From: a phage
Strand: one strand, 5' to 3'
Length of the DNA: 64,000 nt
Sequence record: PZ179883.1
This document shows positions 39,620 to 42,235 of the stretch, piece by piece. Positions within the stretch are counted from its first letter, which is position 1, and every line of letters begins with the position of its first letter. A program made the translations under genes and the position numbers. The notes under the pieces were generated by a model. It was given only the letters and a program-made list of their open reading frames with translations. It searched no databases and was not told the origin of the DNA.

Positions 39620-39656
39620 AAAAATTATACCACAGTCAAGAGGAAAAGTAAACAGT
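39620..39656 (-). promoter_or_regulatory. Early promoter upstream of regB
   Basis: TTTACT N17 TATAAT on the minus strand. Confidence 0.5.
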
Positions 39657-39934
39657 TATTCTTTAAATCTAATCAATTTATTCATAGACTTTGAAACTTC
39701 TGCACGAACCTCATGTAGATTTTTGAGCTGTTCAAGACGCTGCTCATAGTAAGCAATTTCATCTTCTTCGAGACAGTCCTGTGAATCTTCTTTAAGATAA
39801 CGTGCATAGTCCTGGAAAGCGTTACGAACTACTTCCTGGAAGTCATCAAGACTTTGAATTTTCTTAGGAGCAACAGATACACGACGAGGGGCAGTATAAT
39901 ACTCATAACCAAACCCTGCGCTTAATTGAGCCAT
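39656..39934 (-). CDS. Small protein at the vs.3 position (start adjusted, TAATG coupling)
   Basis: 92 aa from [13 protein letters not shown]; upstream gene stop overlaps this start. Confidence 0.45.
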
Positions 39935-40200
39935 TAGTATTTTTCCTCTGGTTGGAACACTGCGCGACAAGCCCACATACTGGCTTCTTTGAGTTTCATT
40001 TTAGCAATAGTTAACTGATCGAGGCTTTCGGCGTAATTCTTCGCGAGTTCATCATCTTCACAGCTATCAAATGCTTCCCAGAATTCATCATATAAAGCAT
40101 CAAAGATAAGCCCTAAACGAACTTCAGCATCTTTGATAGCATTCACTTTACTGATTTTATCGTCAGTATGTGGTTTATAACCTTTAATGTCTTCAATCAT
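39934..40200 (-). CDS. Small acidic protein at the vs.4 position (T4 Vs.4 is the anti-CBASS sponge Acb2); orthology unverified
   Basis: 88 aa; second of six ORFs between regB and denV, matching the T4 vs.3-vs.8 count. Confidence 0.35.
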
Positions 40201-40414
40201 ATTTTACTTCCTCACCTGTTCCCAAATCATATTCAACTAAACGAATAGGTTCATGAATGCCATATCCTTGAACAGAAATTTCTGTCGTAGGATAAATTCC
40301 ATTAATATCACCCATGTTCCACGCTTCATTAAATTGCTGTTCGCCTGAATTACTAAACCACTCGGCGAAAGCATTTAGCACATCTTCAGAACCTTCAATA
40401 ATTATCTTTGCCAT
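40193..40414 (-). CDS. Hypothetical protein (vs.5 position)
   Basis: 73 aa ORF. Confidence 0.4.
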   Translation of the reverse strand: MAKIIIEGSEDVLNAFAEWFSNSGEQQFNEAWNMGDINGIYPTTEISVQGYGIHEPIRLVEYDLGTGEEVKYD

Positions 40415-40788
40415 TACAAACTCTCAGTAAAGGTACGAGCGATAACGTCGCGCTGCTGTTCCGGAGTCAGAGAGTTAAAGCGAACTGCATAACCGGATAC
40501 ACGGATGGTCAGCTGCGGATATTTTTCCGGATGCTTAACTGCATCTTCCAGAGTTTCGCGACGCAGAACGTTAACGTTCAGGTGTTGACCACCTTCAATT
40601 TTAACTGTAGGTTGTGTTTCAATTTCAATTTCACGGGCATGCAAACCATAGAAAATTTCTGGGTCTACAAAAGAGTCCTCTTTAAAAGTTTTAGAGACAA
40701 TAATTCGTGCTTGAATACCATCTTCAAAATAAATAGTACCTTTATGCGTGCCTTCAAGAATTTGATATGCTTTCATATAACCTCTCAA
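40414..40788 (-). CDS. Autonomous glycyl radical cofactor (GrcA/YfiD-like)
   Basis: 124 aa ending [25 protein letters not shown], the glycyl-radical signature; T4 is known to encode a YfiD homologue. Confidence 0.75.
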
Positions 40789-41114
40789 TTAGAAAATAAA
40801 TTTATCCAAGATTGCTCTTTAATTAAAAATGGCTCAGAATCATATGCCATTAAACTTTGGGTGATTAGTCCTTTAAAAGGTCCATCAATAAATTCCATGG
40901 CAAAATATGGAATTTTATTCATTAATCTTGCATTAGGAGCAGTGCACAAAACTCTGCATCCTTTGAATACGCCTTTTTGTAATTTGTATTGCTTAGGATA
41001 AAATTCGCTCAAGGCGTTGTTATTTGCCAAAATTTCAAAATGATTCACCAATTTATTTTTAATAGTTTTTGGCGAAAAATAAAGATATTCGAAAAGTTGC
41101 GTGTCTGTCATCAT
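40785..41114 (-). CDS. Hypothetical protein (vs.7 position; start adjusted to ATGA overlap)
   Basis: Internal [10 protein letters not shown] start overlaps the upstream gene stop. Confidence 0.4.
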
Positions 41115-41698
41115 TGCATTCCGATTATGAAAAACTGTGGACGAGTAATACCACCAATGCAGCATTTACTATTGCAACAGTGGTGCACAGTTTCAATATG
41201 AATATCGTAAATTTTATCCATATCAGGAGATTTAACAGGCTCATCGATTATATACAAAATCCGCGAAAGCGATAAACCTCTGAACTTGCTTCCTTTATTA
41301 CCGATAAAACTACGGATAGAATCGGTAAATAAGCGGAATCGAATATCATCGCTAGAATAACGAGAAAACTCTTTTTTAATGTGGCCCGCAGAAATTTTAG
41401 CGTAAGCTGAAGTATTAGAAAGAACAATAACTGTTCCACCATCATACAGCCAATTAGCAGCGAAGTTAGTCACAGCAGTTGATTTACCAGATTGACGCCC
41501 ACCATCTAGTCGAAGTGTACAATACTGTTTAAGTAAGTCTTCAAATGGCGGGATATATTCGTTTTTACAAATTTCTTCTACTCTAGCATCAGAATGGTGT
41601 GTAAAAGCATTCATCAGGGATAGATAAGGACCAGTTAAAAATGTTCTCATTTTATTCTCTCTAAATTTGGGCCATTCCATGGCGCATGAATTGTCCAT
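41111..41698 (-). CDS. Small P-loop NTPase (vs.8 position)
   Basis: Walker A GGRQSGKST and Walker B ILYIIDEP; 195 aa. Confidence 0.5.
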   Translation of the reverse strand: MDNSCAMEWPKFRENKMRTFLTGPYLSLMNAFTHHSDARVEEICKNEYIPPFEDLLKQYCTLRLDGGRQSGKSTAVTNFAANWLYDGGTVIVLSNTSAYAKISAGHIKKEFSRYSSDDIRFRLFTDSIRSFIGNKGSKFRGLSLSRILYIIDEPVKSPDMDKIYDIHIETVHHCCNSKCCIGGITRPQFFIIGMQ

Positions 41699-41795
41699 TT
41701 CTGTATTTACCCATTACCGCACTTGGGCTCGACCTTATTACAGGTTGGCGGGAATCCCTCACAGAATCATGAGGTCCAGGTTATTCCCATGTTAT

Positions 41796-42212
41796 TTAAA
41801 TGTAAATATTTTTGCCGTAATACTTATACCAGTGTGGCTTCATTAAAATTTTTTCATCGAGTCGTTGTTGACTCAACTTAATAGCTGATTTGCATGGATT
41901 ATAATCATTTTTCCATTCTACTGGAATATCGCTGATGTCAGGAACTTCAGTATCTTTTATACTGAACCCGCGTTTTAAGCATTCCGTTATAATGTCCGAT
42001 TGACGCTTTCGCAAAAATTCTAACTTATCGTAAAAGAAAGTAACATGACCAGAACCTAAAATAAATTTAGAAGATATTTTAAAATCTTTAACGCGCTTAC
42101 CATTTGCCACATGTTTACGAACTATACCAAAAACACGTGGCAATTCACGATACTCAGCCATAAGATGTTGGTCGGTCAGTTCAGAAACAAGTGTTAAATT
42201 GATACGAGTCAT
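41796..42212 (-). CDS. denV: Endonuclease V (pyrimidine dimer DNA glycosylase)
   Basis: [12 protein letters not shown]...YRELPRVFG matches T4 endo V; start set at the T4-equivalent Met (ORF track gives 42224). Confidence 0.92.
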
Positions 42213-42235
42213 AATTTCCTCCAAGTAGTTGATGA

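Follow-up and report, generated by a model that had tools for sequence, protein, structure and literature searches.

A probable terminase-type ATPase core in the small early protein Vs.8 of T4-like phages, and a candidate structured RNA upstream of its gene

The best-characterized protein with which the subject of this work can be compared is gp17, the large terminase subunit of phage T4 (Terminase_6N, PHROG 2; PDB 2o0h, 3cpe, and 3ezk). Its nucleotide-binding core has a P-loop of the form Arg-Gln-x-Gly-Lys-Ser/Thr, a second strand followed by a helix, a conserved Arg-Gly, and a Walker B motif (hhhhDE) ending in the catalytic Glu. The core is part of a late protein of 610 amino acids (aa), which also has some 140 initial residues that include the adenine-binding Gln motif, a TTT coupling motif, a subdomain II, and a nuclease domain. 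The terminase ATPase is itself related to helicase domains. Here we compare with these systems the product of vs.8 in a stretch of phage DNA of 64,000 nucleotides (nt; record PZ179883.1), the whole of which is called the window below. The open reading frame (ORF) at 41111-41698 on the minus strand of the window is vs.8, an early gene of the T4 type in a Tequatrovirus. We consider it reasonably probable that Vs.8 is a single-domain P-loop ATPase of the additional-strand catalytic-glutamate (ASCE) class, with a core like N-subdomain I of gp17, and that it acts as an early, ATP-hydrolyzing accessory protein.

The identity of the gene follows from its surroundings and its product. In the 2-kb stretch around it, DNA identity is 97.8% with Yersinia phage ZN18 and about 96% with ime09, and relatives carry the gene annotated as vs.8. 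The window protein matches PHROG 1488 across residues 3-179 as a full-length member (E-value, or E, 6e-79). This membership names Vs.8 without explaining the protein: PHROG 1488 (T4 Vs.8, UniProt P13318) and its sister PHROG 2586 are both catalogued as "unknown function." Automated GenBank labels for homologs include "terminase large subunit" and, wrongly, "endoribonuclease." The gene is present in 1013 phage records. The features of the protein, numbered from the start codon defined further below, are as follows.

41111-41650, minus strand: vs.8 coding sequence, 179 aa plus stop (PHROG 1488); the homolog alignment begins at this ATG
41477-41503, minus strand: Walker A, GGRQSGKST, residues 50-58 of the 179-aa protein, with a terminase-type Arg-Gln ahead of Gly-Lys
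41237-41260, minus strand: Walker B, ILYIIDEP, residues 131-138, with Asp136 and the catalytic-type Glu137
41114-41122, minus strand: C-terminal Gly-Met-Gln, directly after the last core beta strand, where the protein ends

The original prediction, of a small P-loop NTPase of unassigned function with Walker A and Walker B motifs, stands, and given their conservation the motifs are not due to chance. In an alignment of 18 full-length close homologs, down to about 40% identity, the stretch D49-G-G-R-Q-S-G-K56 is invariant, as are R113, R124-G125, E137-P138, G177, and Q179; D136 is present in all but one, which has glutamate. GRQSGKS (residues 51-57) fits the GxxxxGK[ST] pattern of ASCE P-loop NTPases, and ILYIIDE fits their Walker B pattern of hhhhD followed by a catalytic Glu. 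A profile search through 1.84 billion representative proteins supplied the 50 members of a wider family alignment. In it R52, Q53, and G55 each reach at least 90% conservation, the P-loop Arg-Gln is conserved better than the Lys, and the C-terminus is Q or E. PHROG 2586 is also matched by 44 of these 50. The family is sparse: at the 50% identity level, all the proteins searched yield no more than about 50 representatives. Complete members have about 140-260 aa, most of them 160-185 aa; since lengths are uniformly small, small size is a stable property and no artifact of truncation.

Profile comparisons identify the ATPase subdomain of the T4-type large terminase (TerL) as the nearest characterized relative of the Vs.8 core, a kinship that we draw from aligned profiles. 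When the 50 family members were aligned by hhalign with 40 T4-type TerL N-termini, the match extended over 124 columns with 97.7% probability (E 1.6e-12). RQSGKS was paired with 161-SRQLGKT-167 of gp17, R124-G125 with the invariant R245-G246, and D136-E137 with D255-E256; the strand after the Vs.8 P-loop was paired with the second strand of gp17. The conserved Arg-Gly lies eight residues ahead of Walker B in Vs.8. As a control against the view that any P-loop would do, the 50-member profile was searched against all 177,635 distinct PDB sequences. T4 gp17 took the top three places (E 6e-7 to 9e-6), followed by a signal recognition particle receptor (8e-5), TerL of Thermus phage P74-26 (4e-3), and helicases (0.04 or worse). 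The same search with a profile of the 18 close homologs gave nothing significant. Among PHROG families, "terminase large subunit" was the sole functionally annotated kind matched, PHROG 2 by 29 of the 50 members (best E 3.9e-8) and PHROG 7579, also a terminase family, by two. Below threshold, Pfam gave AAA_14 in 34 of the 50, Terminase_6N in 21, and AAA_30 in 12, with AAA_19 weak; NCBIfam gave nothing useful. A Conotoxin match in Pfam (E 0.001, in a Cys-rich tail) was set aside as chance, as it occurs in one of the 50 members and in a stretch that is not conserved.

In spite of this kinship, Vs.8 is not a terminase. It has the homologous ATPase core and the P-loop arginine of TerL proteins (R52 is nearly invariant among the 50 members), but its Terminase_6N score is 15.2 bits against a gathering threshold of 22. 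Unlike gp17, it has no counterpart of the first 140 or so residues with their Gln motif, and, ending at residue 179, none of subdomain II or of the RNase H-like nuclease domain; in place of the TTT coupling motif of gp17 it has a terminal GMQ. Vs.8 is also made early, from a gene between denV and vs.7, far from genes 16 and 17, whereas TerL is expressed late beside the small terminase and portal genes. The AlphaFold2 model (predicted local distance difference test score, or pLDDT, 81.6) shows a long N-terminal helix and behind it a core of five beta strands alternating with helices, the last at 173-176, so that the protein ends right after the fifth core strand. For an ASCE protein, the core sheet would be expected to have the order 5-1-4-3-2, in which an additional strand separates the P-loop strand from that of Walker B; the model shows the five alternating strands, and its fold matches are ASCE proteins. 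The C-terminal GMQ may occupy the position of the terminase C-motif or of helicase motif III. Foldseek matches in the PDB were the first RecA-like domains of superfamily 1 and 2 (SF1/SF2) helicases, together with phi29 gp16 and the P74-26 TerL ATPase. Predicted viral structures that match Vs.8 are small uncharacterized proteins of T4-like and jumbo phages.

On the strength of motif conservation and homology, we propose that Lys56 and Ser57 would bind ATP, that Asp136 would hold Mg2+, and that Glu137 would serve as the catalytic base, allowing ATP to be hydrolyzed. Vs.8 would then act as an early, non-structural accessory protein, with a role in host takeover or counter-defense rather than in DNA packaging. 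T4 vs.8 and vs.7 were both classed as "early RNA, early protein" in a time-resolved study (PMC9697503, supplement). In enterobacterial T4-like phages, Vs.8 would be made in a fixed ratio with Vs.7, with which it may act jointly. The two genes are arranged as follows.

41111-41114, minus strand: ATGA overlap, in which the vs.8 stop TGA (41113-41111) and the vs.7 start ATG (41114-41112) are joined
40785-41114, minus strand: vs.7, the coupled downstream gene, 109 aa (PHROG 2049, E 8e-54)

This overlap bears out the translational coupling to the next gene that had been predicted: the same 4-nt overlap of vs.8 and vs.7 recurs in T4, ime09, Bp7, fGh-Ecl01, and AnYang. In five further T4-like genera vs.8 is followed by a Vs.7 homolog, and the number of phage records with Vs.7 is 933, compared with 1013 for Vs.8.

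The mechanical ORF of 195 aa at 41111-41698, on which the original prediction was based, does exist and contains both motifs, but its first 16 codons are non-coding and the conserved protein has 179 aa. The alignments leave little doubt that translation begins with the ATG at 41650 (MRTFLTG...). Every one of the 18 homologs begins with M(R/K)TFLT at this position, the PHROG 1488 alignment opens at residue 19 of the 195-aa ORF, and annotated homologs are mostly 173-181 aa long, the ime09 copy being annotated at 540 nt. No protein-level conservation was found upstream of M17 of the 195-aa ORF among the homologs in the alignment, and upstream of the ATG the reading frames differ among relatives. 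Insertions or deletions there (8 nt in T4, 1 nt in FBB1 and fGh-Ecl01) are in no case a multiple of three, which would be intolerable in a coding region and argues that the following stretch is not translated.

41651-41698, minus strand: 5' extension of the mechanical ORF (48 bases, 16 codons), read as non-coding and as part of an upstream RNA element

In T4, the 8-nt insertion fuses the upstream frame to vs.8, which accounts for the reference annotation of 219 aa (NP_049732; T4 NC_000866 64253-64912, or 5254-5913 of our T4 locus, L002). The first 40 residues of that annotation come from reading the non-coding RNA element as protein.

The spacer ahead of vs.8 varies less among phages than the Vs.8 protein does. 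The sequence ACCTGTAATAAGGTCGAGCCCAAGTGCGGTAA is almost invariant in Tequatrovirus, Dhakavirus, Karamvirus, Marfavirus, and Roskildevirus, among which Vs.8 identity goes down to 36-44%. We put at about even the chance that the first 16 codons of the ORF and the roughly 90 nt before them form an undescribed, compact class of RNA. Separately, Vs.8 is perhaps an early counter-defense mimic of the terminase ATPase. Of the two objects the RNA element is the more unusual. Its parts, from alignments, RNAalifold, pair counts, and permutation tests, are the following.

41671-41788, minus strand: structured RNA between denV and vs.8, about 118 nt
41788-41783 with 41755-41750, minus strand: P1, the covarying outer stem
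41749-41746 (linker) with 41713-41710, minus strand: PK1, a proposed pseudoknot
41745-41742 with 41735-41732, minus strand: P2, the hairpin ACCU-GUAAUA-AGGU
41731-41714, minus strand: invariant joiner CGAGCCCAAGUGC-GGUAA (also given as CGAGCCMAAGYGC-GGUAA), between P2 and the 3' side of PK1
41683-41671, minus strand: 3' hairpin GCCAUGGAAUGGC, T4-specific

Covariation argues for this architecture. In T4-like copies RNAalifold finds compensatory changes at all five pairs of P1 (GGGAA/UUCCC, AAAGG/CCUUU, AAAGC/GCUUU), and outside the T4-like phages P1 takes the forms GGGG/CCCC, GGAAC/GUUCC, GAAUG/CAUUC, GAGUG/CACUC, and GAGGG/CCCUC. P2 is ACCU/AGGU, with one GCCU/AGGC variant. PK1 forms between the 4-5 nt that separate P1 from P2 and the bases that immediately follow GGUAA, as CCCU:AGGG, UCCA:UGGG, or CCC:GGG, and in Karamvirus as CUGGU:GCCAG. 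In a second proposed pseudoknot, PK2, bases on the 5' side of the P1 loop pair with the segment that follows PK1, and the complementary sequence differs in nearly every group (CUCCGG:CCGGAG, CGGA:UCCG, CCAG:CUGG, AGGG:CCCU, GAGG:CCUC, CACAC:GUGUG, ACCG:CGGU, ACCA:UGGU, CCGA:UCGG). In an alignment of 21 sequences, 87.8% of the counted pairs can form against 77.4% in shuffles, and cells with a double change number 49 against 16; none of 500 shuffles reached as high, and slid registers fall to 25-58%. Among 16 curated variants, none of 20,000 permutations reaches the cognate complementarity of P1 or of PK2, and seven reach that of PK1, in a test that ignores phylogeny and uses segments curated by hand, as P1 was placed wrongly in many copies by an automatic helix finder. 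The G-U pairs of the helices are consistent with the vs.8 strand only. Folding of the single sequence was uninformative (z-score 0.7).

The element occurs in about 1100 phage records (L002-L030, L035, and L040-L049 in our set of loci). In T4-like phages it heads the vs.8-vs.3 early operon. BLAST and pattern scans found the same core in Vequintavirus FV3, in rV5-like contigs, in the 45-kb phage Ivi, and in viral contigs of 46-70 kb; most copies outside the T4-like phages lie about 200-600 nt upstream of tRNA clusters. The annotated ORFs neighboring the RNA in FV3 and Ivi, the two records checked, include no Vs.8 homolog. Eighteen Campylobacter phage records also match by BLAST, which may be chance or may indicate a further host range. 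Four matches to the core in bacterial genomes were all judged to be chance, the rest of the motif being missing.

As to what the RNA is, Rfam 15 gave no match for 12 copies from four phage groups, at E limits of up to 10 for the window copy, 5 for five T4-like copies, and 1 for six copies from other phages, and the core strings occur in no searchable paper. With riboswitches and small ribozymes it shares the proposed pseudoknots and a highly conserved unpaired joiner, which are typical of these Rfam classes. A resemblance to twister or hatchet ribozyme sequences was not supported by the Rfam models. Unlike this element, rnaC and rnaD, small RNAs known from T4, do not have the conserved core sequence (as read by eye only). 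A small upstream ORF (MRHGMAQI / MCQGMA...) was rejected: its start is ACG or UUG in some copies, its frame differs among phages, and in FBB1 a compensatory stem change creates a stop after four codons. The candidates are an independent stable small RNA, a cis-regulatory leader or ribo-regulator, a ribozyme, and a processing or protective element. Between denV and vs.8, neither a sigma-70-type promoter nor an intrinsic terminator was predicted.

Some loci show rearrangements around the element. In two T4-like contigs from IMG/VR (L013 and L021), an internal-protein gene whose N-terminus, MKTYKEFITEAK, is of the capsid-targeting type lies between the RNA core and vs.8, and the T4-specific 3' hairpin (GCCAAGGAAUGGC; GCCAAGGAAYGGC) is duplicated, on both sides of the inserted gene; the hairpin may thus mark a point of cassette insertion. 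In ime09 and many relatives, Ip4 instead precedes the element. Two Karamvirus-like contigs (L020 and L023) have two tandem, diverged copies upstream of vs.8, and the second copy in L020 has the compensatory P2 variant GCCU/AGGC. In five of the 46-70 kb contigs (L042, L043, L045, L047, and L048), a repeated motif, AGTGCYMTTTCCGTTGTGRYGA, with copies spaced about 150-220 nt apart, flanks the RNA immediately upstream of the tRNA cluster; the motif may be a processing signal or a phage promoter.

On the minus strand the genes run e, a small internal-protein-like ORF, denV, a spacer of 145 nt, vs.8, vs.7, vs.6, vs.5, vs.4, vs.3, and regB. The order of denV or an internal-protein gene, then vs.8, then vs.7 is kept in seven relatives. 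The placement of vs.8 "upstream of denV" in the original prediction is correct in plus-strand coordinates only; both genes are on the minus strand, and by transcription vs.8 comes after denV. The claim that the gene sits among small vs.x genes, one of which in T4 (Vs.4) is Acb2, is confirmed by the neighbors listed here, with an Acb2 homolog at the vs.4 position.

41796-42224, minus strand: denV, endonuclease V (Pfam Pyr_excise, 5e-14; PHROG 1183, 1e-62), transcribed just before the RNA element and vs.8
40414-40776, minus strand: vs.6, a GrcA-like glycyl-radical "spare part" protein (Pfam Gly_radical, 2e-18; annotation of relatives)
39934-40200, minus strand: vs.4, homolog of Acb2, of the cyclic-nucleotide sponge family that counters the cyclic-oligonucleotide-based antiphage signaling system (CBASS) (Pfam Acb2_Tad1_hairpin, 3.3e-18)
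39656-39934, minus strand: vs.3, homolog of the T4 anti type IV Thoeris sponge TadIV-1 (PHROG 2037, 3e-40; T4 Vs.3 function from PMC13243611)

When read from the Met that matches T4-type annotations, the window vs.3 product has 92 aa and would fall in the long form, which is reported to be active (PMC13243611). A GrcA-like glycyl-radical gene also lies near distant Vs.8 homologs, upstream in one locus (L033) and downstream in another (L035), which may be plain synteny or a functional link.

Several observations weigh against the reading of Vs.8 as an ATP-hydrolyzing partner of Vs.7. The original prediction had made retention of the Walker lysine a test of itself. The lysine is kept in all T4-like homologs and is replaced by His only in a remote metagenomic branch of seven family members (P0056, P0058, P0060, P0064, P0065, P0067, and P0068), whose P-loop reads SGH[ST]. 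In this branch the DE of Walker B is changed to D[CV]A or D[CV]S, with the motif lost in P0067, so that the catalytic Glu is gone, while the P-loop Arg-Gln or Arg-Arg is retained (Arg-Met in P0064). Two further members disturb the Gly that precedes the Walker Lys. ATP hydrolysis is thus not needed across the whole family, and the His-for-Lys branch would be either a lineage of pseudo-enzymes or one with a different chemistry. All Pfam matches of Vs.8 fall below gathering thresholds, and the structure matches are weak (template modeling score, or TM, 0.4-0.5), with helicase domains and not terminases in the top ranks. The partnership with Vs.7 is not universal, because a locus with a distant Vs.8 (28% identity; L035) continues with vs.5 and vs.6 homologs without vs.7, and vs.7 is apparently missing beside the Vs.8 homolog of L033 (PP397179.1) as well. 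The Vs.7 model is too poor for a fold search (pLDDT 51.8, from three usable full-length sequences). When Vs.3 to Vs.8 of T4 were expressed singly, only Vs.3 (TadIV-1) inhibited type IV Thoeris; Vs.8, in the sole experiment in which it has been expressed, did not (PMC13243611). A literature search on "vs.8" found no functional, biochemical, or genetic study.

Helicase-like features suggest a different role, which we regard as unlikely: that Vs.8 is a nucleic-acid remodeling ATPase, a one-domain relative of SF1/SF2 enzymes that works on RNA or DNA, possibly on the upstream RNA itself, as an ATP-dependent clamp or chaperone. The best structural matches are first RecA-like helicase domains (SLFN11, DSH9, T4 UvsW [PDB 1rif], RecD, and Dda), with which Vs.8 shares the general ASCE alpha/beta fold. 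The weak matches to AAA_30, which we take to be of the SF1 helicase type, and to AAA_19 point the same way, and the C-terminal hhhhGxQ resembles, in our own reading, the GDxxQ of SF1 motif III, at whose place it stands. Moreover, the conserved structured RNA lies directly upstream of vs.8 in all T4-like phages examined. However, SF1/SF2 helicases need two tandem RecA-like domains with motifs I-VI, whereas the model of the 179-aa Vs.8 has one domain, in which motifs Ia to VI are unrecognizable, and by sequence profile the terminase outscores every helicase. The RNA is also found in Vequintavirus, in Ivi, and in the 46-70 kb phages, and, as the copies in FV3 and Ivi stand without an annotated Vs.8 homolog alongside, the RNA element and Vs.8 are not an obligate pair.

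It is quite unlikely, in our estimate, that Vs.8 works as a terminase mimic or decoy, an early copy of the gp17 ATPase surface that, present ahead of gp17 itself, either occupies host immune sensors of large terminases (Avs1-3 type) and leaves them inactive or titrates a partner of the terminase, with ATP binding serving for shape only. The gp17 ATPase core of the same phage is its closest characterized relative, Vs.8 is made early and packaging is late, the operon is shared with two proven anti-defense proteins, and the loss of the Walker Lys in the remote branch implies that catalysis is dispensable for some members. Avs sensors recognize TerL. Over the aligned core, however, Vs.8 shares only some 15% identity with gp17, so no mimicry of the surface is apparent, and the strict invariance of the catalytic residues in T4-like homologs argues for real chemistry. 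PADLOC gives only weak, generic ATPase matches (E 0.005-0.02) and no known defense or anti-defense family.

A small-molecule kinase of nucleotide metabolism, comparable to Tk or gp1 of T4, would suit a small protein whose gene lies a few kb from tk, and a single remote member has a weak TK match (E 0.013). We nevertheless hold it very improbable, as no kinase family or structure matches the T4-like Vs.8 proteins, and the conserved Glu after Walker B, which P-loop kinases do not have, is the hydrolase signature of ASCE ATPases. A match to a characterized nucleotide kinase, which would have overturned the original prediction, was found in none of Pfam, NCBIfam, PADLOC, and the PDB. That vs.8 is a decaying, functionless remnant of a duplicated terminase gene is hardly credible in spite of its architecture, shortened relative to TerL, since some 1000 genomes from several genera have the ORF intact and at a constant length, its catalytic residues are invariant at 40% overall identity, and the protein is detected early in infection.

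What is new here, as read from the sequences, is the nearest characterized relative of Vs.8 and the definition of its start codon. The latter matters for cloning, as the T4 reference (219 aa) and many ORF calls (195 aa) take in non-coding RNA sequence. Vs.8 is one among many conserved T4 early proteins without an assigned function, and its neighbors Acb2 and TadIV-1 have recently been shown to be sponges of immune signals. If our preferred reading of Vs.8 as an early accessory ATPase is right, it would be a stripped-down packaging-motor ATPase with all catalytic residues in place, and it would show that the cores of such motors can serve on their own as small early proteins. Confirmation of the RNA element would add a new family of structured RNA to some of the best-studied phages.

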